The notes under the pieces were generated by a model, which saw only the letters and a program-made list of their open reading frames with translations, made no database searches and was not told the origin of the DNA. Positions 4,853-54,108 of a DNA stretch of 64,000 bases are shown here, one piece after another; within the stretch, counting starts at the first letter, position 1, and every line of letters begins with the position of its first letter. Origin of the DNA: Patescibacteria group bacterium (GTDB taxonomy: Bacteria; Patescibacteriota; Patescibacteriia; Magasanikbacterales; GWA2-37-8). A program made the translations under genes and the position numbers. The DNA lies in the NCBI GenBank assembly GCA_004321885.1, contig SCQK01000007.1:96001-160000 (forward strand), read 5' to 3'.

Positions 4853-4937
4853 TTTGTCATTGCGAGGAGTGGAGCGACGAAGCAATCCCTTGCGTTATGT
4901 CTGGGATTGCTTCGGCCTTTCAGGCCTCGCAATGACA
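4853..4937. repeat. Family B MITE-like element (gtcattgcgagg...cctcgcaatgac, ~80 bp), intergenic copy
   Basis: Terminal inverted repeats gtcattgcgagg / cctcgcaatgac with an internal gggattgcttcg motif; further copies at 19833-19915, 20934-21008, 22239-22313, 36107-36197 and 59758-59838. Confidence 0.8.
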
Positions 4938-5636: not shown

Positions 5637-6662
5637 TTATACCACAAAATTGTCTCGCAGTAATGTGGATAACTGTTTCCACTGCTCTACGGATAATTCT
5701 TGAGCGCGAATGTTTGGGCCAATACCCATTTCAGTAAAAATTTTTTCCAATTTTTCTTTAGCGCCCTCATTGTCATTCCCCCGACTAAGTACGGGGGAAT
5801 CCAGCAACGGCTGTAAATTCTTTATCAATAATTTGCGTTTTTGCGCGAATCCGGCTTTGACCACTTTGAAGAACCACTGTTCATTGTCATCATCGCTGTC
5901 ATCGCTGGCTCCATAGTCCCCCAAAGGGGGCTGTGGAGCCAGAGTGCCGGCCGACATCACGGCTCCATAATCCCGGTCGCCTGCGGCGACCGTGGAACTA
6001 TGGAGCCAGCGATGTTGCTCCATTCCTCGCAATGACAATTTTATCACCGCGCTGTCCACCTTGGGTTCGGGCCAAAAAAATGTTTTCGGCACTTTCATTA
6101 TTATTTCCGGCTCGGCGTAATATTGAACGGAAACAGCAAGCAAAGACATATCCCCCGGCCCAGCGCAAATTCTTTCGGCCACTTCTTTTTGCACCATGAG
6201 TACCATCACGGACGGACTGTCCGCTTCTCCCGCAACAGCGGGATCCCGCTCGCCGCGGGACAAAAATTTACGCAACACGTTGGAAGTGATTTGATACGGC
6301 AGATTGGCCACAACTTTGTATTCTTTATTCCCCATTCCTAATTCTCTATTTTTCAACACATTTCCCCACGCAATTTCCACGTTCTTATGTTTCTTCACTT
6401 GCTCTTCCCAATACGGCTGGAGTTTTTTTTCAATTTCATAGGCAATGACTTTGCCGGCGCGCTCGGCCAGCGCAAAGGTGAGCGCGCCAAAACCCGGGCC
6501 GATTTCAACCACCGTGTCTTTTTTGGAAATTTCCGCCGCCGCGAGCATCTTTTCTATTGGCTCTTCGCGCAACAAAAAATTCTGCCCGTATCGTTTGCTG
6601 GGAGTGAGGCGATACTTGGAGCAGAGATATTTTAAGTGTGAGGTAGCAAATAAGATGGACAT
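5637..6662 (-). CDS. rsmA: 16S rRNA (adenine1518/1519-N6)-dimethyltransferase RsmA/KsgA, carrying three in-frame repeat insertions
   Basis: GQNFL start motif, SAM-binding VVEIGPGFGALT, NLPYQITS and VLMVQKEVAERI motifs. The C-terminal half contains repeat-derived segments (family E about 5925-6035, family A 5771-5804). Confidence 0.85.
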   Translation of the reverse strand: MSILFATSHLKYLCSKYRLTPSKRYGQNFLLREEPIEKMLAAAEISKKDTVVEIGPGFGALTFALAERAGKVIAYEIEKKLQPYWEEQVKKHKNVEIAWGNVLKNRELGMGNKEYKVVANLPYQITSNVLRKFLSRGERDPAVAGEADSPSVMVLMVQKEVAERICAGPGDMSLLAVSVQYYAEPEIIMKVPKTFFWPEPKVDSAVIKLSLRGMEQHRWLHSSTVAAGDRDYGAVMSAGTLAPQPPLGDYGASDDSDDDNEQWFFKVVKAGFAQKRKLLIKNLQPLLDSPVLSRGNDNEGAKEKLEKIFTEMGIGPNIRAQELSVEQWKQLSTLLRDNFVV

Positions 6663-7376: not shown

Positions 7377-7436
7377 AATCGATTAGATAAGCGATACGCG
7401 ATAGGCGAAGAGCAAATATCGCATATCGCTTATCGC

Positions 7437-8507
7437 TTATTTTTTAATCCACCTCAAATACGCCTCGCAGAGCGGCAGCAGCTCCCCTTCCAGCACCCCC
7501 TCAGGGTCGCTGGATTCGTACTCGGTGCGGTGGTCTTTTACCATGTGATAGGGGTGCAAAACATACGAGCGTATCTGATTCCCCCACTCGGCCGATTTAT
7601 ACTCCCCGCGCAATTCCTGTTTTTCTTTCGCCAGCTTCTCCTGCTCCAGCCGGTGCAGTTTCGCTTTCAAAACCTTCATGGCCGTTTCCTTATTCTGTTG
7701 TTGCGAGCGTTCGTTCTGGCACTGCACGCTGATGCCGGTGGGCGCGTGCACAATGCGCACGGCTGAATAAGTGGTGTTGACGCTTTGGCCCCCGTGCCCG
7801 CCGGACATAAAAGTATCAATGCGCAAATCCTTGGGGTCAATGGCAATTCTTACATCCTCGTCCAACTCGGGCAAAACCTCCACCAGGGCGAAAGAAGTGT
7901 GGCGCATTTTCTCGGCGTCAAAAGGCGAAATGCGCACCAGCCGGTGCACGCCGTGTTCGGATTTTAGATAGCCATAGCCGTAGCGGCCTTTCACTTCAAA
8001 CATGACTGACTTAAAGCCGGCTTCGGCCCCGCGCGATTCTTCCAATACTTTTGTTTTCCAGCCGCGCTTTTCGCAAAAACGCAGCAGCATGCGCGTGAGC
8101 ATGGCGGCCCAGTCCTGGGCCTCGGTGCCGCCGCTGCCGGCATGTATGGCAACGATGGCGTTGTTCTTGTCATAAAGGCCGGAGAGCAGTAAATAAAATT
8201 CATACTCGGTGAAATCTTTTTCCAACTGCGCGGTTTGCTTTTCCACTTCTTCGGTTAGCGAATCATCGGCCGAGAGTTCAAGCAAATCATCGGCCTTGTT
8301 TTCTATCTGTTCCCACTTTTCCAATTCTTTTTTTATGTCCTGGTAATCCTGCGCCACGGCCTGGGCGTTTTCCTGGTCGCGCCAAAAATCCGGCGCCTCC
8401 ATTTGCGCCGCCAGCTTTTCGGACTTTTTTTTCAGCTCATTTAGTTTCAACAATTTTTTTGTCCGCCCTATTTTTTCTTTTAATTCCGATAATTTTTTAC
8501 TAACCAT
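7437..8507 (-). CDS. prfB: Peptide chain release factor 2 (uninterrupted ORF, no programmed frameshift)
   Basis: GGQ motif (MSGGHGGQSVNTT), SPF tripeptide typical of RF2 and RF-1 domain signature RIVHAPTGISVQCQNERSQ; a continuous 356-aa ORF. Confidence 0.85.
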   Translation of the reverse strand: MVSKKLSELKEKIGRTKKLLKLNELKKKSEKLAAQMEAPDFWRDQENAQAVAQDYQDIKKELEKWEQIENKADDLLELSADDSLTEEVEKQTAQLEKDFTEYEFYLLLSGLYDKNNAIVAIHAGSGGTEAQDWAAMLTRMLLRFCEKRGWKTKVLEESRGAEAGFKSVMFEVKGRYGYGYLKSEHGVHRLVRISPFDAEKMRHTSFALVEVLPELDEDVRIAIDPKDLRIDTFMSGGHGGQSVNTTYSAVRIVHAPTGISVQCQNERSQQQNKETAMKVLKAKLHRLEQEKLAKEKQELRGEYKSAEWGNQIRSYVLHPYHMVKDHRTEYESSDPEGVLEGELLPLCEAYLRWIKK

Positions 8508-17396: not shown

Positions 17397-18290
17397 TCAT
17401 TTCATAATTATATCTCCAATTTCGTCCGTTCGTAAAATTTCCGCGGCCGCACGTTCTAATTTTTTCAACACTCGCAAAGAGGGATGACCGTACCTATTTT
17501 TTCCCACGGAAATTATCGCTTTATCCGCGTTTACGGCTCGCAAAAACTCGGCGCTGGTGGAACTATCGCTGCCATGATGCCCGACTTTCAAAATATCGGA
17601 CCTCAACGCTGTACACCCCTCCCCTATTAGGGGAGGAACAGGGGGAGGGGTATTTTGGCTAGAACAATACTTCGCCAGCAACGCCTGCTCCAGCGGTTCC
17701 TCCATATCGCCGGTAAACATTATAGTCGTACTCGCTCTGGAAAGCCGGAAAACAATTGAACGATTGTTATAATCCCCATCTTTTGTATCTATGCCCAGGG
17801 CCGGGTCCGGGGCCAAAAAATTCAGCTCTGAACCGGCGAACGCCAGCTCTTTCGGGCCGCTTATCACGCTTGCAACCGCCCTCTCTTCCTGCTGGTATCT
17901 GTACCAAACCTGCCAGTACGCGTCAAATTCTTTCTTGGCTCCATTGGTGATAATATTTTTTACCTCGTATCTTTTTAAAACATCCGCACAGCCGCCGTAA
18001 TGGTCCAGGTCAGGATGCGTAATCAGCAAATAATCAATGGTGCGGTCGTAAAACGGCAGATACTTGCCCAGTTTAGTCAGCACTTTGCGATTGGGTCCGC
18101 AATCCACCAGCATTTTTGCGCCGTCATCAAACTGTATCAGCGCCGAGTCGCCCTGACCCACGTCAAAAAAAATAACGCGAAAACCTTTTTCCGCGAAAAA
18201 AAACAAATTAAAAAGCAAACCGAGAATTATTATCAGGCAACCAACCAGGGCCGAAACTACTTTCTTGCGCATAAAATCTGATTCACCCAC
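17397..18290 (-). CDS. comEC: ComEC/Rec2 C-terminal metallo-beta-lactamase domain protein
   Basis: MBL motifs FFDVGQGDS, LLITHPDLDHYGG, KVGHHGS and NRYGHP, with an N-terminal TM segment. Contains an in-frame family D hairpin (17612-17650, translated PPPVPPLIGEG). Confidence 0.8.
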   Translation of the reverse strand: MGESDFMRKKVVSALVGCLIIILGLLFNLFFFAEKGFRVIFFDVGQGDSALIQFDDGAKMLVDCGPNRKVLTKLGKYLPFYDRTIDYLLITHPDLDHYGGCADVLKRYEVKNIITNGAKKEFDAYWQVWYRYQQEERAVASVISGPKELAFAGSELNFLAPDPALGIDTKDGDYNNRSIVFRLSRASTTIMFTGDMEEPLEQALLAKYCSSQNTPPPVPPLIGEGCTALRSDILKVGHHGSDSSTSAEFLRAVNADKAIISVGKNRYGHPSLRVLKKLERAAAEILRTDEIGDIIMK

Positions 18291-18928: not shown

Positions 18929-20463
18929 AGATGTTTACCCCTCCCTAACCCTCCCCTTATAAAGGGGAGGGCAATAATAATATACAACAATATCGTCATC
19001 CACCAGCTGATTCGTATTTCCAGCGCGGCCCAGCCCTGTTTTCCAAACCATTCCACTAACATTATAACATACCCAAGTCCGACGCCAACAATCCAGGCCA
19101 CTATCTGTCCCAAAGGAAAAAATATGAAACCGAGCATGACCGCGGCGAATCCAAAAAGCATCAGCCACGGGATAATCCACAGCACCAGCAAATTCACGAG
19201 CGGCGCAACGATAGAGAGGCGGCCGAATTGAAACAGCATCAAAGGCAAAGTGGCGATGATGGCGGAAAGGGTTTGCACCAATGTTTGAAAGAAAAAATTA
19301 ATACTGTCATTGCGAGGAGCCGGAAGCGACGAAGCAATCCCAAGCGATAAATATACGAGTCCCAAAGTCGCTAAAAAAGACAGTTGAAACCCCGCGTCCC
19401 ACACCAGCACGTACGGATTAAAAAGCAACATCAGCGCCGCGGTCAGCGCCAGCACATTGCCCACGCGCGACAAGCGACCCATTTGTTGCGCCAGCAAAAC
19501 AATCACGCCCATTATTCCGGCGCGCACCACCGAAGCCGAGGCGCCGGTAAAGAGCACGAATAAAATTATGCCAACGACCACGGCCCAAAACGCGCGAGGG
19601 CGCGACAGCCCGGCCAGAATAAAAAAACTCATCAGCGCCAAGGCGATGATACTAATGTTGTATCCGGATATGGCGATAATATGAGTGATGCCCGAACGAT
19701 TAAAATCCTCCAGCAGCTCCGTCGGCAGGCCGCTACGCGCGCCGTAGAGCAGTCCGGCCATCAAACTGCTCTTCGGCTCTGGCCAAAGTTTGTCCACCTG
19801 ATTCGCGACAGCCGATTTAAGGCGTAACATGTCATTGCGAGCGACCGTAGGGAGCGCGGCAATCCCATTCTTTGCAAGGGATTGCTTCGTCGTTTCACTC
19901 CTCGCAATGACAGGATTCCCGCACACCGACCAAATCCCATAGCGCGCCAAATACTGGTCATAGCGAAATCCGTCCGGGCTCGCTTTTGGCTCTTGCAATA
20001 CACAAGACAAATTCAACTCCTCTCCATACTCATAGCGCGGATACAGTGGCAGCCAAAAAATAATTTTACCGGAAATATTTTTTGGACAAACAAACGACTG
20101 CCCCGCGCAACTTTTTACTTTCGCCACGTATTTCACGTTGCTTATCCCCGCTTCCGGCTCTTCGCTTACAGCCGCCGTCACTTCCATTTTCTCGCCGTTG
20201 TAATATTTGATACTGCTCGGCGTGATTTTCGGCACGCTGATTAAAAAACGCAAGCCGCCCAAAATAAAAAACAACGCGCAAAGCAGGGCGAAGCGCCAAA
20301 CTTTTTTCTGCCACAGCATTACGGCGAAAAAAAGCGCGGCAAACGCCGCGATAAACAAAGGAAACTGCCAATCACTATTTTCCTGAAGCGAAAACAAACT
20401 CACGCCGGCTATAAAACAAAAGCAAAACGCGAGAAACGTTTTGCTTTTAGAGTGCATTGTCAT
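18925..20463 (-). CDS. comEC: ComEC/Rec2 competence protein, N-terminal (DUF4131) plus polytopic competence-channel domain
   Basis: Competence-domain signature GLPTELLEDFNRSGITHIIAISGYNIS and multiple TM helices. I trimmed the start to MTMHSKSK (20463/20457) because the longer ORF (20697) overlaps leuS. Contains in-frame family B insertions (19300-19345 and 19833-19915). Confidence 0.75.
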   Translation of the reverse strand: MTMHSKSKTFLAFCFCFIAGVSLFSLQENSDWQFPLFIAAFAALFFAVMLWQKKVWRFALLCALFFILGGLRFLISVPKITPSSIKYYNGEKMEVTAAVSEEPEAGISNVKYVAKVKSCAGQSFVCPKNISGKIIFWLPLYPRYEYGEELNLSCVLQEPKASPDGFRYDQYLARYGIWSVCGNPVIARSETTKQSLAKNGIAALPTVARNDMLRLKSAVANQVDKLWPEPKSSLMAGLLYGARSGLPTELLEDFNRSGITHIIAISGYNISIIALALMSFFILAGLSRPRAFWAVVVGIILFVLFTGASASVVRAGIMGVIVLLAQQMGRLSRVGNVLALTAALMLLFNPYVLVWDAGFQLSFLATLGLVYLSLGIASSLPAPRNDSINFFFQTLVQTLSAIIATLPLMLFQFGRLSIVAPLVNLLVLWIIPWLMLFGFAAVMLGFIFFPLGQIVAWIVGVGLGYVIMLVEWFGKQGWAALEIRISWWMTILLYIIIALPFIRGGLGRGKHL

Positions 20464-24190: not shown

Positions 24191-24316
24191 TAAATTAAAA
24201 CGGAGGGTATATATAATTTTTGTAGCGGCCATCGCACCCCCGCGGGGCAGCGGTCGCCGCAGGCGACCCTGTTTGGCCGCAAAAAAATTATATATACCCT
24301 CCGTTGTTTTAATTTA
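24191..24316. repeat. Long perfect AT-rich palindrome (about 33-bp arms) enclosing a conserved 57-nt GC-rich structured core, copy 1 (downstream of trxA)
   Basis: Arms taaattaaaacggagggtatatataatttttg / caaaaaaattatatataccctccgttgttttaattta; core gcggccatcgcacccccgcggggcagcggtcgccgcaggcgaccctgtttggccgc. The right arm overlaps the trxA stop codon. Confidence 0.8.
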
Positions 24317-26826: not shown

Positions 26827-27240
26827 ACCCTCTCCTGTTAGGGGAGGGATAAAGGGATGGGGTATCCACTCAATATCCCTAAAATCTTACTCTCTTACAC
26901 TGAATTAGTCAAATACGGGAATATCGCTGGCTCCATAGTGCCCGACTTAGTCGGGGCTGTGGAGCCGTAATGCACTCTGGCTCCACGCACAGCATGGAGC
27001 CAGCGACATTTGACACGCGCCCGATTTTGTGATAAAGTGATTTCACAATTAAAATAATAATTCTGGATTCCCCCGACTTAGTCGGGGGAATGACAGATGA
27101 GATTTTTGAGGGAATTTTTTAAGAGGAAACTCGTATGGCTCGTGCGGCTGAAACTGCCAAAAATACGCTAACGAAAACACTTTCAAGCGCTATCCGTGTG
27201 TGGGTTCCCCCGTACTTAGTCGGGGGAATGACAAACGAAT
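26827..27240. repeat. Intergenic repeat hotspot with a family D hairpin, a family E element and two family A copies
   Basis: 26827-26862 (D), 26925-27010 (E: ggctccatagtgcccgacttagtcggggctgtggagcc...), 27063-27098 (A), 27203-27238 (A); a 500-bp spacer between infB and rny. Confidence 0.8.
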
Positions 27241-35138: not shown

Positions 35139-35255
35139 AGAGGAAAAAATTAATGACTAAGATAGAGATATGATACACCTTGAACAAAAAACGGGCAATA
35201 GCAAATACCGAGCGCGTTGACATCAGCCCTTTTTTTAGGGTATTATTAAGCCAAT

Positions 35256-35441
35256 GTCAGGGTAGCTCAGTTGGTAAGAGCACAGGATTCACCCTCCCAC
35301 CAAAATGGCTGGGTAGCTCAGTTGGTAAGAGCACGGGATTCATAACCCCGAGGTCGGCAGTTCGATTCTGCCCCCAGTCACGATTGTTTGGTGGGAGGGT
35401 GAATAACCCTGAGGTCGAGGGTTCGACTCCCTCCCCTGACA
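35256..35441 (+). tRNA. tRNA(CAU)-like gene interrupted in the anticodon loop by a 112-bp insertion (candidate intron or pseudogene)
   Basis: Perfect acceptor gtcaggg/ccctgac, D arm gctc-agttggtaa-gagc, T arm gaggg-ttcgact-ccctc. The anticodon stem cagga/ccctg is split by caccctcccacc...ggtgggagggtg (a 14-bp helix) that encloses the tRNA at 35307-35380. Removing 35292-35403 yields the loop ttCATaa. Confidence 0.5.
35307..35380 (+). tRNA. tRNA-Met/Ile2 (anticodon CAU), elongator type; CCA not encoded; nested inside the interrupted tRNA
   Basis: Acceptor ggctggg/cccagtc (G-U at 2:71), D arm gctc-agttggtaa-gagc, anticodon stem cggga/ccccg with loop ttCATaa, variable loop aggtc, T arm ggcag-ttcgatt-ctgcc. 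G1-C72 argues against an initiator. Confidence 0.8.
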
Positions 35442-35443
35442 CT

Positions 35444-36529
35444 ATGCTTCTGTTAGGCATAGAGTCATCTTGCGACGATACTTCAGTGGCCCTGGTCGCC
35501 TGCGGCGAACGGGGCTGTTTTGTGGTTGCCGAAAAAACCGCTTCGCAAACCGCGCTCCATAAAAAATACGGGGGCGTGGTGCCGGAAATAGCCGGGCGGG
35601 CGCACGCGGAAAAAATCGTGCCCCTGATTGAGGCGGTTCTGCGAGGAAAAAAGCCGGATGTTATCGCCGTAACCGCCGGACCCGGATTGATTACCGGTTT
35701 GCTGGTTGGCGTGGAAGCGGCGCGCGTTTTGTCATACGCGTGGAATGTGCCGCTATTGGCGGTAAATCATATTGAAGGGCACATCTATTCCGTGGAATTG
35801 GAAAACGAAAAAATCAAGTTCCCCGCTCTCGCGCTTATTGCCAGCGGTGGTCATACCGAGCTGATTTTTATGAAAAACCACGGCCAGCACAAACTGCTTG
35901 GCGCCACGCGCGACGACGCGGCCGGCGAATGTTTTGACAAGGTCGCCAAACTGCTCGGTCTCCCCTACCCGGGCGGTCCGGAAATTTCTCGGCTGGCGAT
36001 TGGCGGCGACCCGGGCGCCATAAAATTTCCGCGGCCGATGATAGAAAGCGATAATTACGACTTCAGTTTTGCCGGATTAAAAACCGCGGCGCTGTATTGG
36101 TTAAGGGATAATGTCATTGCGAGGCCTGAAAGGCCGAAGCAATCCCCCACAATCAAGCAAGGGATTGCTTCGCTTCGTTCCACTTCGCTCGCAATGACAA
36201 TGAATGATTTCTGCGCCAGTTTTGAGCAAGCGATAGTAGACGTCTTGGTCGCGAAAACTCTGAAAGCGGCCAGACAATACAAACCGAAAACCGTTATTCT
36301 TGCTGGCGGGGTTTCGGCGAACAAGAAACTTCGCTCTGCGCTTGAAAAGGCAATAAAAACTCTCGCTCCAATTACCAATTTCCAATTACCAATTTCCAAT
36401 TATTGTATGGACAACGCGGCCATGCTCGCCGTGGCCGGATATTATCGCGCGAAGAAAAAAAATTTCACTGATTGGAAAAAAATCCAAGCTGACCCGAATT
36501 GGACGATTTCTGGATTCCCCCGTACTTAG
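35444..36529 (+). CDS. tsaD: tRNA N6-adenosine threonylcarbamoyltransferase TsaD (Kae1/YgjD family) with in-frame repeat insertions
   Basis: MLLLGIESSCDDTSVAL start, HIEGH metal-binding motif and GGVSAN. I trimmed the start from 35180 because that ORF runs through the tRNA genes. Insertions: family B (36107-36197), GGAAATT-type (36368-36398) and family A at the 3' end (36512-36546). Confidence 0.85.
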   Translation: MLLLGIESSCDDTSVALVACGERGCFVVAEKTASQTALHKKYGGVVPEIAGRAHAEKIVPLIEAVLRGKKPDVIAVTAGPGLITGLLVGVEAARVLSYAWNVPLLAVNHIEGHIYSVELENEKIKFPALALIASGGHTELIFMKNHGQHKLLGATRDDAAGECFDKVAKLLGLPYPGGPEISRLAIGGDPGAIKFPRPMIESDNYDFSFAGLKTAALYWLRDNVIARPERPKQSPTIKQGIASLRSTSLAMTMNDFCASFEQAIVDVLVAKTLKAARQYKPKTVILAGGVSANKKLRSALEKAIKTLAPITNFQLPISNYCMDNAAMLAVAGYYRAKKKNFTDWKKIQADPNWTISGFPRT

Positions 36530-48943: not shown

Positions 48944-49045
48944 TAAGAGGAGAGCGAGAGAGGGGTATCGCGGTTTCCCCTCCCCTTTTTAAGGGGAGGG
49001 TGAGGGATGAGTAATCGTCAATTCCCCCGCCCCTTTATAAGGGGC
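48935..49045. repeat. Three tandem family D GGGGAGGG hairpins
   Basis: cctctccccttgataagaggagag, cccctcccctttttaaggggaggg and cccccgcccctttataaggggcgggcggggg variants. Confidence 0.8.
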
Positions 49046-49833: not shown

Positions 49834-50121
49834 TTCTTTTCCGATCTCGGGAACATCTTTTACATAGATTGTCCCTTCTACGTATTCGCGCGGTGGTTGA
49901 TGTTCTGGTATATTAGTATTGAATTAATTTTATATAAAGTTGACCCTCATAACTAACCGCGTAGACTGATATTATACAGGCCTCATGTTTTACGGTCAAT
50001 TGGAGTTCTGCAAGACAATCTTACTCCACCCCACCTCGCCTCCCCCTTGGAGAGGAAACAACGATTACCCCTCCCCAACCCTCCCCTTATAAATGACGAT
50101 TACCCCTCTCTAACTCTCCCC

Positions 50122-51516
50122 TTATAAAGGGGAGAGAAACGACGACACTTCTTTTGTCTTATCGGTCATCAGCGACTCTGAACGCGCTTCCAAGTTGAGG
50201 CGCATTTTGTTTTCGGTGTTTGACGCGCGCACGTTAAACCACCAGTCCGGCCATTCAAAAGACAGCCCGTCAAAGTCATATTTCAAATTCGCGCCATACT
50301 TTTCCCGCAAAGCAACGAACACCGCCTGCTTGTCTTCCACCGCGAAATTGATTTCACCCGAATGAAAATACTTATACAAAGGCGCGCAATACTCGCTTAT
50401 CGTCTTCCCGCTCTCGGACAGCTCCTGCAAAATCTTCAAGAGCATTATCTCCGGCGCCTCAAAAGTGCCGTGCGGCATTTTCAAGAAAAAATGCCCGGAT
50501 GATTCGCCGGCGAACACAGCTCCGGTCTCGGCCATCTTTTCTTTTATCAGCGAATGCCCCACTTTGGTCACCATTGGTTTGCCGCCGGCCTCCACGATCA
50601 TGTCCTCGGTGATTTTGCCAGGCCGAACATCGTAGCAAATTGTCGCGCCCGGATACTCGCGCAAAAATATCTGCGCCAAAATGCCACGCACTATGGCCGG
50701 CTCTATTGTCTTGCCTTTTTCGTCAACAAAAAATACTCGGTCCGCGTCGCCATCAAGAGCCACGCCCAAATCAGCGCCGGTTTCAACAACTTTTTCTTGA
50801 AGCGCGCGGTTGTTTACATCTTTCAAAGGATCGGCCTCGTGATTTGGAAAATTACCGTCCAGTTCAAAATACAAAGGCACTAACTCGCACGGTAAATGTT
50901 TGAATAATTCTTCCATCAAAGGTCCGCCCATACCGTTGGCCGAATCAACCACCACTTTGAGTGGATTAATTTTCTTCACGTCCGCCTGGGTGAGAGCGAA
51001 GGCGATGTGATCCGCGATGACGTTTTCTTTTTTTGACAATACCCCCTTCTCACCTCCCCCTTGTAAAGGGGGAGGGATTGCGCCACCCGCGATCATATCG
51101 CGGATTTCCATTATTCCGGTATCTCCACTTATCGGACCGGCCGCGGCGCGCACCATCTTAAACCCGTTATACTTCGCCGGATTGTGTGAGGCCGATACTT
51201 GCAAGCCGCCGTCATAGCCGTAATGGGCCACGGAAAAATAAAAAGTCGGCGTGGAAACCAAACCAACGTCAATCACGTTCACGCCTTGCTCCAAAATTCC
51301 TTTGATAACCGCGTTTGCCAAAACCGGAGAAGAAGCGCGCATGTCGCGGCCCACAACGACTGTTACCCCTCCCTCACCCTCCCCTTGTAAAGGGGAGGGA
51401 GTGCGCCTGATAAACTCCGCGAACGCCCGCCCCACCTTAAAAGCCAAACCCTCGTTTAATTCATCCGGATACACCCCCCTGATGTCATAGGCCTTAAAAA
51501 TTTGTGCTGGAAACAT
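50122..51516 (-). CDS. Phosphoglucomutase/phosphomannomutase (alpha-D-phosphohexomutase family) with two in-frame GGGGAGGG hairpin insertions
   Basis: Active-site SASHNPAKYNGFK, metal-binding GDADRVFFVDEKG and sugar-binding GESSGH. Hairpins at 51050-51078 and 51378-51400 are translated as PPLQGGGEKG and SPLQGEGEGG. Confidence 0.85.
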   Translation of the reverse strand: MFPAQIFKAYDIRGVYPDELNEGLAFKVGRAFAEFIRRTPSPLQGEGEGGVTVVVGRDMRASSPVLANAVIKGILEQGVNVIDVGLVSTPTFYFSVAHYGYDGGLQVSASHNPAKYNGFKMVRAAAGPISGDTGIMEIRDMIAGGAIPPPLQGGGEKGVLSKKENVIADHIAFALTQADVKKINPLKVVVDSANGMGGPLMEELFKHLPCELVPLYFELDGNFPNHEADPLKDVNNRALQEKVVETGADLGVALDGDADRVFFVDEKGKTIEPAIVRGILAQIFLREYPGATICYDVRPGKITEDMIVEAGGKPMVTKVGHSLIKEKMAETGAVFAGESSGHFFLKMPHGTFEAPEIMLLKILQELSESGKTISEYCAPLYKYFHSGEINFAVEDKQAVFVALREKYGANLKYDFDGLSFEWPDWWFNVRASNTENKMRLNLEARSESLMTDKTKEVSSFLSPL

Positions 51517-54022: not shown

Positions 54023-54108
54023 ACCGCGCGAACCCCCTCCCCTATTAGGGGAGGGGGAACCCAATTACTCCTCCCCCTTTTAGGGGGAGGATAAAGGAGG
54101 GGGTATTT

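Follow-up and report, generated by a model that had tools for sequence, protein, structure and literature searches.

Upstream of tsaD, a 64-kb window of DNA from a Patescibacteria group bacterium (the whole stretch of 64,000 nucleotides that was analysed) carries a tRNA(CAU) gene (35256-35441) into which, between positions 35 and 36, 112 bp are inserted, and this insert holds a second, complete tRNA(CAU). We interpret the locus as a fresh, compensated disruption, in which a hairpin-bracketed cassette with a cognate tRNA sits in the resident gene and gene replacement is in progress, and we put the probability of this interpretation at about 0.65. A preliminary description of the locus had offered a freshly disrupted pseudogene as one of three options, and this option turned out to be the best supported one: the outer gene remained uncalled, and the inner one scored 66 bits and belonged to the same tsaD-linked family. 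In the window genome the outer gene is probably non-functional and never spliced. The locus does not stand alone: nested tRNA genes form a class that recurs on metagenome contigs of Patescibacteria type. Contigs from metagenomes and relatives that were compared with the window are designated below by L and a number.

All parts of the nested locus lie on the + strand. The 5' part of the outer tRNA-CAU (35256..35291, positions 1-35) comprises the acceptor 5' strand, the D arm, the anticodon-stem 5' strand and U32 U33 C34 A35. Its 3' part (35404..35441, positions 36-73) resumes with U36 A37 A38 and continues through the anticodon-stem 3' strand, variable loop, T arm and acceptor 3' strand to the discriminator A. 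The acceptor stem was confirmed to be perfect (GTCAGGG at 35256-35262 against CCCTGAC at 35434-35440, 7/7 pairs), and the D and T arms to be intact. The insertion (35292..35403) is made up of a left arm, a 2-nt spacer, the inner tRNA, a 6-nt spacer and a right arm. The inner tRNA-CAU (35307..35380, GGCTGGG...CCCAGTCA) is complete and likely the working gene; as previously noticed from the letters alone, it is a second tRNA(CAU), called by ARAGORN at 35307-35381 and by Rfam (RF00005) at 35307-35380 with 66.1 bits. The flanking helix had been given as 14 bp and is in fact longer: the arms are 18 nt long and 100% complementary (35287-35304, ATTCACCCTCCCACCAAA, against 35387-35404, TTTGGTGGGAGGGTGAAT), match 18/18 at the ends of the insert and have 82 nt between them. 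This helix takes in bases of the outer exons, since the first 5 nt of the left arm are outer positions A31-A35 and the last base of the right arm is outer position 36 (T36).

In-silico deletion of 35292-35403 restored, as anticipated, a 74-nt tRNA with the loop TTCATAA and anticodon CAU, which ARAGORN folded into a perfect cloverleaf. The boundary of such an excision had been called ambiguous, which it is, but to the extent of just one nucleotide (A). In its interrupted form the outer gene received no call from ARAGORN or Rfam, and ARAGORN with intron search, run as had been proposed, missed it too.

The minimum free energy (MFE) structure of the 186-nt RNA was an exact double cloverleaf of -90.5 kcal/mol. 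Shuffled sequences reached -62.3 +/- 4.6 kcal/mol, which gives the locus a z of -6.1, and 0/200 shuffles folded as well. The acceptor, D and T arms of the outer tRNA formed the base of this fold, and its 4-bp anticodon stem led across a bulge of 3 nt into the 18-bp helix, which the inner cloverleaf capped. In the MFE and centroid folds alike the single bulge, A37 A38 C39, was made of exon bases only, the helix was uninterrupted and the 5' junction sat within it. A continuous 18-bp helix with one bulge of exon bases and no second bulge bears out the earlier statement that this is not an intron of the archaeal bulge-helix-bulge (BHB) kind. The exclusion of a group I intron stood as well: none was matched in Rfam at the gathering threshold in the window, and 74 of the 112 nt are tRNA. 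The junctions led to the same rejection, the last exon base being A35 (or C34) and no U, and the insert ending in ...GTGAA or ...GTGA, with no G.

The locus lies in the gene order HU, an open reading frame (ORF) of 138 aa, tRNA, tsaD and, on the opposite strand, dnaE, and TsaD and adjoining genes place the window in Candidatus Magasanikbacteria/Patescibacteria. The comparison with related genomes that the preliminary description had recommended was run at this locus. Syntenic loci (~140-aa ORF upstream, tRNA-CAT, tsaD, minus-strand dnaE) had one tRNA(CAU) each, in the outer or the inner form, and the 112-bp insert was absent, none of the ~20 syntenic tsaD loci examined carrying a nest. The GTCAGGG or GACAGGG form was present in L003, L005, L006, L009, L205, L209, L210, L212 and L213, and the outer tRNA is orthologous to the GTCAGGG-type tRNA before tsaD in L005, L006, L205, L209, L210, L212 and L213. 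The GGCTGGG...CCCAGTCA form stood single in L206-L208, with 72/74 identity to the inner tRNA of the window.

A sigma-70-type promoter of the resident tRNA gene was located at 35217..35246 (+; TTGACA, 18 nt, TATTAT; 11/12 consensus matches), and it presumably drives the whole composite transcript. Equivalent promoters were found upstream of the single tRNA in syntenic relatives, and the distance from the -10 box to the outer tRNA, 9 nt, was the same as in L005. At the other end, the ATG of tsaD at 35444 follows the outer discriminator after 2 bases; the corresponding spacing was 2-5 nt in the uninterrupted loci L003, L006, L009, L010, L206 and L213. Since both forms occur singly in relatives and the outer one keeps the promoter and tsaD spacing, the locus comparisons mark the outer gene as the resident and the inner one as the invader, a variant of the same tRNA. 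The same logic applied to L171 versus L188, where the outer gene retains the 'CCCA C ATG' spacing. As for tsaD itself (35444..36529, +; Pfam TsaD, E = 2e-87), it acts in synthesis of N6-threonylcarbamoyladenosine at position 37 (t6A37) and served as the context gene fixing synteny. It has no visible Shine-Dalgarno sequence (window 35441-35446), and processing of the outer tRNA at its 3' end would leave an almost leaderless tsaD mRNA. We take the tsaD-linked tRNA to be a likely substrate of the t6A37 pathway that includes TsaD.

It had been considered plausible that the two tRNAs are tRNA-Met and tRNA-Ile2. Synteny led us to reject this pairing: both have the same unusual anticodon arm (A31.C39, loop UUCAUAA), and the outer and inner forms each occur singly at the same syntenic tsaD site, so one tRNA exists here in two variants. 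The paired G1-C72 shows that neither of them is an initiator. The two have a 24-mer in common, and nearly every difference between them is compensated within its stem, at 28:42, at 4:69 and in three pairs of the T stem. Both therefore diverged as working tRNAs in separate lineages before they were joined. Duplication in situ followed by decay of the outer copy was ruled out for the window, where the differences are compensatory and the outer gene is undamaged.

From these observations we propose the following course of events. A non-coding cassette, composed of a diverged copy of the same tRNA and its arms, would have entered the resident anticodon loop at 35/36. The composite would be transcribed from the resident promoter; the arms are predicted to zip into the 18-bp helix atop the outer anticodon stem, with both cloverleaves folding, and RNase P and 3'-end processing enzymes would free the inner tRNA, making it the working gene. 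The outer halves would then be by-products and the outer gene a relic that still provides promoter and tsaD junction. In the class as a whole, outer halves would later decay or take up sequence of the inner gene by recombination, in some cases once further nesting has occurred. The window copy is undamaged and its helix perfect, and its insertion would therefore be a very recent event.

To what extent the architecture recurs was seen by scanning metagenome contigs for two D arms (TAGCTCAGNTGGNNAGAGC) 15-45 nt apart, a spacing that marks nests because ordinary tandem tRNAs cannot be so close. With this single D-arm sequence at least 120 metagenome contigs matched. The same pattern occurred in 1 of 2.9 million viral contigs, and with just this one a phage origin was ruled out. 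Among the matches listed there were 112 distinct segments, 100 of them with a complete inner tRNA, and ~31 nests in which both outer halves lay within 60 nt and the inner tRNA had the same anticodon. The agreement of cargo and anticodon was examined in detail on these ~31 complete nests, whose isotypes were Met, Ile-GAT, Ile-TAT, Val-GAC/TAC/CAC and Pro, and only cognate combinations of cargo and target were found. The simplest explanation is selection, since disruption of an essential single-copy tRNA is tolerated only together with a replacement. The same contigs also held nests of Gly, Phe, Ala and Cys tRNAs, whose D arms are different. One contig, L171, whose L19 protein clusters with Nealsonbacteria/Patescibacteria, carried four nests, one of them three-level at 7383-7625; nesting into a previous copy was repeated in L171 and in L094. 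There were also reciprocal nests, L084 with outer GCCAGGG and inner GGCAGCG, and L160 with the two reversed. In an incomplete body of literature we met no account of bacterial tRNA genes nested in their own cognates, and an earlier report is possible.

This recurrence bears on whether the structure could be an assembly or amplification artefact, that is, a chimera of two strain alleles or a fold-back chimera. The inner and outer forms do occur as alleles in related lineages with their common 24-mer, and the right arm exactly reverse-copies the left junction, both points in favour of an artefact; but the arm and spacer sequence is found in neither allele and a graph error cannot invent it, and the structure is exactly in tRNA register. 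With the architecture in at least 120 contigs from many samples, and with orthologous nests recovered independently (L094/L133/L164/L179 and L108/L171/L188), we regard an artefact as very improbable.

Junctions of the nests favoured the anticodon loop and no particular sequence. They were located at 33/34 (L089), 35/36 (the window and L180), within 35-37 with a 2-nt ambiguity (L124, L131), 36/37 (L107), 37/38 (L158) and 38/39 (L175), as well as at 26-31/32 (L094, L173, L196) and at 26/44 with replacement of the whole anticodon arm (L171, L188, L100). A flanking inverted repeat (score >=9) is specific to nests: it accompanied 31.5% of nested tRNAs but 4.5% of the others, and in shuffled controls its share was 0%; most of the 4.5% turned out to be nests with different D arms. 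The arms begin 0-8 nt from the ends of the inner tRNA in most nests; the cargo is therefore tRNA-sized. In a large arm family the termini TTCA-CCC...GGG-CA(A/G)G were conserved, and the interior was variable and covarying: in 15 elements with TTCA...CAAG termini, 95% of cells paired and 7/10 pairs changed on both sides, for a covariation score of 0.65 against 0.20 in shuffles. The window arms belong to this TTCA-CCC family, which was found in at least 15 other nests. TTCACCC stood upstream of 24/113 nested tRNAs versus 4/173 'free' ones, of which all but one proved to be nests as well. A single arm type encloses four different tRNAs in L171.

Orthologous nests, which came from different samples, allowed us to follow the fate of the outer halves. 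The inner tRNA had 0 differences over 75-77 nt, the outer 3' halves 2-7 differences over 34-43 nt, and outer 5' halves and arms were better conserved than outer 3' halves. The differences in the outer 3' halves came largely from recombination with the inner 3' half, which disrupts the outer T stem (L179, L171); L133 and L108 retain the original half. In L142, which has the same inner tRNA as the intact, restorable nest of L131, the outer halves are truncated and degenerate, and of the 100 inner-tRNA segments among the matches listed about two thirds had no recognisable outer 3' half nearby, and about 70% no good one. Many nests yield no decoder by any excision: L183, L198, L121 and L167 have lost two loop nucleotides, and in L171 (four nests, one triple), L188 and L100 the insert stands in place of the entire anticodon arm. 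Outer acceptor and T stems were mostly perfect in complete nests, in a scoring where a few rows misaligned by indels make the mismatch totals overstate decay, and their sequence was unlike that of the inner stems, which argues that the inner tRNA is not an in-situ copy. Read from these alignments, the pattern of the class is that of relics and not of maintained genes.

The same alignments weigh on a first rival, a new kind of bacterial tRNA intron that involves neither a group I intron nor the archaeal endonuclease. The 112 nt would be excised and the outer halves ligated, for example through helix-directed cleavage and an RtcB-type ligase, and one transcript would give two functional tRNA(CAU). 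Such an intron would account for the perfect tRNA left by precise in-silico excision, the fully intact outer gene, the perfect 18-bp helix stacked on the anticodon stem with a single 3-nt bulge, the precisely restorable nests L124, L131, L180, L107, L158 and L175 and the arm covariation, and Patescibacteria are known to tolerate tRNA introns at 35/36 (PMC13011429). We nevertheless consider it unlikely, since junctions vary from 26/44 to 38/39 and helix geometry differs among nests, many nests are unrestorable, and outer halves are chimeric or decayed next to an invariant inner tRNA; furthermore, the nest is kept in no syntenic relative examined, and the same isoacceptor would be made twice, with the outer one redundant. 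To our knowledge no bacterial enzyme performs such an excision and ligation, which we also counted against this explanation.

The good state of many outer stems would also fit a composite precursor, whose outer shell is kept as a processing scaffold and not as a decoder. Its acceptor/T module would supply RNase P and RNase Z sites, at which the transcript would receive its 5' end and tsaD mRNA would be released almost without a leader, and the helix would present the inner tRNA. In line with this, tsaD starts 2 nt past the outer discriminator with no visible Shine-Dalgarno, most complete nests have perfect acceptor and T stems in the outer gene even where its anticodon arm has been replaced, and conservation is higher in the outer 5' halves and the arms than in the outer 3' halves. 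The uninterrupted tRNA of relatives, however, already gives tsaD its 3' processing site, therefore nesting gains nothing. The outer 3' halves, which a scaffold needs, vary most and have broken T stems, and at many loci one outer half is wholly lost. On balance a scaffold seems to us unlikely as well, slightly more so than the intron.

Several observations weigh against a fresh, compensated disruption and account for our reservation. No target-site duplication was found, the window junctions TTCA/CCC and TGAA/TAA having no more than 1 nt in common, and junctions of other nests had a 0-2 nt overlap or a 2-nt loss. The outer gene of the window shows zero decay, has no flaw in any stem, keeps all invariant positions and allows precise removal of the insert, which is also the look expected of a functional intron-containing gene. 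The helix reaches 5 bp into the outer exon and might be a recognition structure; L124, L131, L180, L107, L158 and L175 are precisely restorable too, and outer stems are intact even in the three-level nest of L171. The nearest other TsaD, from Magasanikbacteria/Patescibacteria, has at most 70% identity to that of the window. One arm family comes with varied cargo (Met, Ile, Val, Ala, Cys) and a nearly identical inner tRNA with different arms (L094 vs L180), a mixing that a simple cut-and-paste element does not explain. Finally, no insertion enzyme or mechanism was identified.

As to where the arms come from, the preliminary description had linked them to a hairpin family of the window, and this link is real at the 10-mer level. 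The 10-mer TCACCCTCCC occurs 4 times in the window, in the two arms, at 51376(+) and at 49001(-), and the full 12-mer arm is unique there. Taken with the mixing of arms and cargo among nests, this makes the arms seem characteristic of the recipient genome, or else of some hairpin superfamily with a wide distribution, with the cargo matching the interrupted tRNA. Cargo trimmed to the tRNA, and arms that appear to be common to the nests of a genome and akin to local hairpins, suggest a hairpin related to repetitive extragenic palindromic (REP) sequences or miniature inverted-repeat transposable elements (MITEs), into whose loop a tRNA-sized copy, possibly RNA-derived, would have been placed. The same points suggest, as an alternative, a spread by horizontal recombination through conserved tRNA halves, with the helix juxtaposing two homology arms. 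A hairpin-specific enzyme acting on single-strand DNA is a further candidate route.

Three other origins of the cassette were considered. The left arm resembles the leader of L213, AATTGACCACCAAAAAT, and might have been the native 5' leader of the donor, but TTCACCC hardly occurs outside nests and is therefore no general leader; what precedes the tRNA in L213 may be the remnant of an arm. The right arm, an exact reverse copy of the left junction, could have arisen if the leader was copied by self-primed fold-back; with spacers of 7 nt vs 2 nt the register is not an exact fit, and this was left as a possibility. For a cassette circle with a hairpin recombination site, no complete right-left hairpin was present in 1.37 Mb of loci, and the junction spacing does not fit the overlap of a tyrosine recombinase.

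The window contains further hairpins. GGGAGGGT occurs 7 times versus 1.3 expected, and ~12 small dispersed hairpins have the form CCCCTCCC(C) - A/T loop - GGGGAGGG. They lie at 17616, 18938-18975, 23833(-), 40100, 48430(-), 48977-49001, 50068-50140, 51366-51400, 54034-54056 and 61540, often after a second C-rich copy (TTACCCCTCCCTAACCCTCCCC) or before ACAGGGTGGGGT, and have no terminator T-run; two of them contain TCACCCTCCC, as do the arms around the inner tRNA. At 24199-24305, 5900-6014, 26920-27010 and 27067-27229 there are further long inverted repeats, whose halves lie 57-119 nt apart; one is 23 nt long and 100% complementary, two have the arm ATCGCTGGCTCCAT, and their shape is that of paired REP sequences forming a hairpin (REPINs). 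No tRNA was found inside these four sites. Large palindromes of the type TGTCATTGCGAGG.../...CCTCGCAATGACA were detected at 4855-4937 and in L008:3830-3990 (there TGTCATTCCGA), and they seem to belong to a repeat common to Patescibacteria genomes.

Other inserts and fragments were encountered both among the nests and at the tsaD locus. In L108:3640-3960 (minus strand), a tRNA-Val(GAC) is broken after TTGAC by a long protein-coding insert, which may be an intron with an ORF; of its orthologs, that in L188 has no interruption and that in L171 is a hairpin nest. In L087 (minus), ~70 nt before a Val-CAC tRNA, an outer 5' half comes first, then a small hairpin that is complete in itself, and only after this the full tRNA. 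The hairpin has the family termini (TTCA TCCGCC AAA GGGCGGA CAGG) with both arms on one side, an arrangement that may be an intermediate or alternative state of a nest. At the tsaD locus, tRNA fragments were also seen in L010, L209, L212 and L124. L209:1028-1186 and L212:548-700 carry a ~150-nt conserved insert between a complete tRNA and tsaD, with a strong hairpin CATGACACAC...GTGTGTCATG, then a GC-rich structured stretch and, at its end, a 17-18-nt duplicate of the tRNA 3' end (GATTCTCTCCTCTGACA or CAACTCCCTCCCCTGACA). No Rfam family matched it, and it looks like a T-loop-targeted insertion with an attachment-site (att)-like repeat. In the tRNA-tsaD gap of L210:590-700 and L211:60-133, ~110 nt of TAAAGCAG repeats and inverted copies CTGCCTTAA are another type of insert at the same tsaD hotspot. 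Finally, in L010:3800-3925 the intact tsaD-linked tRNA is preceded by part of another copy, its 5' fragment (GTCAGGGTAGCTCAGCT...). This fragment has a hairpin-like 30-nt D-loop insert, stops at the variable loop and appears to be a different relic state of the same locus.

Extended from the window to the class, a fresh, compensated disruption would mean that Patescibacteria harbour hairpin-armed tRNA cassettes of selfish or repair-derived origin, which repeatedly enter the anticodon arm of their own cognate gene and assume its role. This extension is a tentative one, and we give it less than even odds; in a still bolder variant, some of the cassettes may be true introns from which two tRNAs are released. 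The cassettes would perhaps be made by reverse transcription of tRNA into hairpin loops or by a hairpin-specific enzyme for single-strand DNA, and tRNA genes would be subject to continual xenologous turnover, of which reciprocal and multi-level nests would be the fossils. If this is true, essential single-copy tRNAs of ultra-small bacteria are replaced by foreign cognates via a nested intermediate, an unrecognised route of horizontal replacement for core components of translation. Standard tRNA finders see the inner gene alone, and the nested architecture is hidden in annotations; nests can thus skew counts of tRNA genes and pseudogenes in reduced genomes. The window copy is a clean test case, with both genes, helix and promoter intact.

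How do these nests relate to known systems? Group I introns have a conserved catalytic core, P3-P9, and are usually longer than 200 nt. Those described in tRNA genes of Patescibacteria lie in the anticodon loop at position 35/36 (Nakagawa et al. 2026, PMC13011429). The nest of the window shares with them the phylum, the 35/36 site and a gene that standard finders miss (PMC13011429). Unlike them, it has an insert without room for the core, and the interrupted tRNA is CAU and not Asn or Asp. BHB introns, the protein-spliced tRNA introns of archaea and eukaryotes, are similar in being anticodon-loop inserts that do not self-splice and whose flanks pair as a helix continuing the anticodon stem. 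In archaea, tRNA introns can carry another functional RNA, and split halves are joined by GC-rich complementary flanks. The nests differ from BHB introns in that the host is a bacterium, there is no 3-4-3 bulge-helix-bulge, junctions are not fixed across the class and outer halves decay; no BHB introns in such bacteria were reported in the literature searched.

Some mobile elements disrupt a tRNA gene and compensate for it, as do integrase-borne islands that restore the 3' end of a tRNA, and as in tRNA-dependent lysogeny (PMC10865867). In the nests, too, the incoming DNA brings tRNA function, so that the insertion is tolerated. In contrast to such elements, the insert measures 112 bp and not kilobases, has no integrase and carries a whole tRNA within its arms; it leaves the resident gene in two parts that are not joined again, with no direct-repeat att site. 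Neither junction of the window rebuilds the outer tRNA, and the repeats are the full inner tRNA versus the outer halves; an integrase-type pattern is seen in L209 and L212 with their 17-18-nt 3' duplicate.

Closer in size are MITEs, REP sequences and REPINs, which like the nests are small and non-coding with terminal inverted repeats and a long hairpin; here the sole content is a tRNA. Repeated insertion into a prior copy, as in L171 and L094, is also a habit of nested ('Russian doll') transposons. Unlike in MITEs or REPINs, the arms vary among genomes, the cargo always matches the interrupted tRNA and is trimmed to tRNA size, and no cognate transposase was identified for the nests. Another parallel is provided by the intervening sequences of rRNA that RNase III removes without religation, likewise helix-closed inserts in a bacterial gene for a stable RNA, and the 18-bp helix would be a plausible RNase III substrate. 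Here, however, an unligated cut would break the outer tRNA in two and deprive it of its anticodon loop, so that it could not serve as a decoder, and the functional product is the insert and not the host RNA. Nests thus resemble MITEs and REPINs, compensating elements and intervening sequences, and a defining feature of each of these is missing from them. They would join hairpin repeats, group I introns and integrases as a mobile or repair-generated unit whose cargo is the target tRNA itself.

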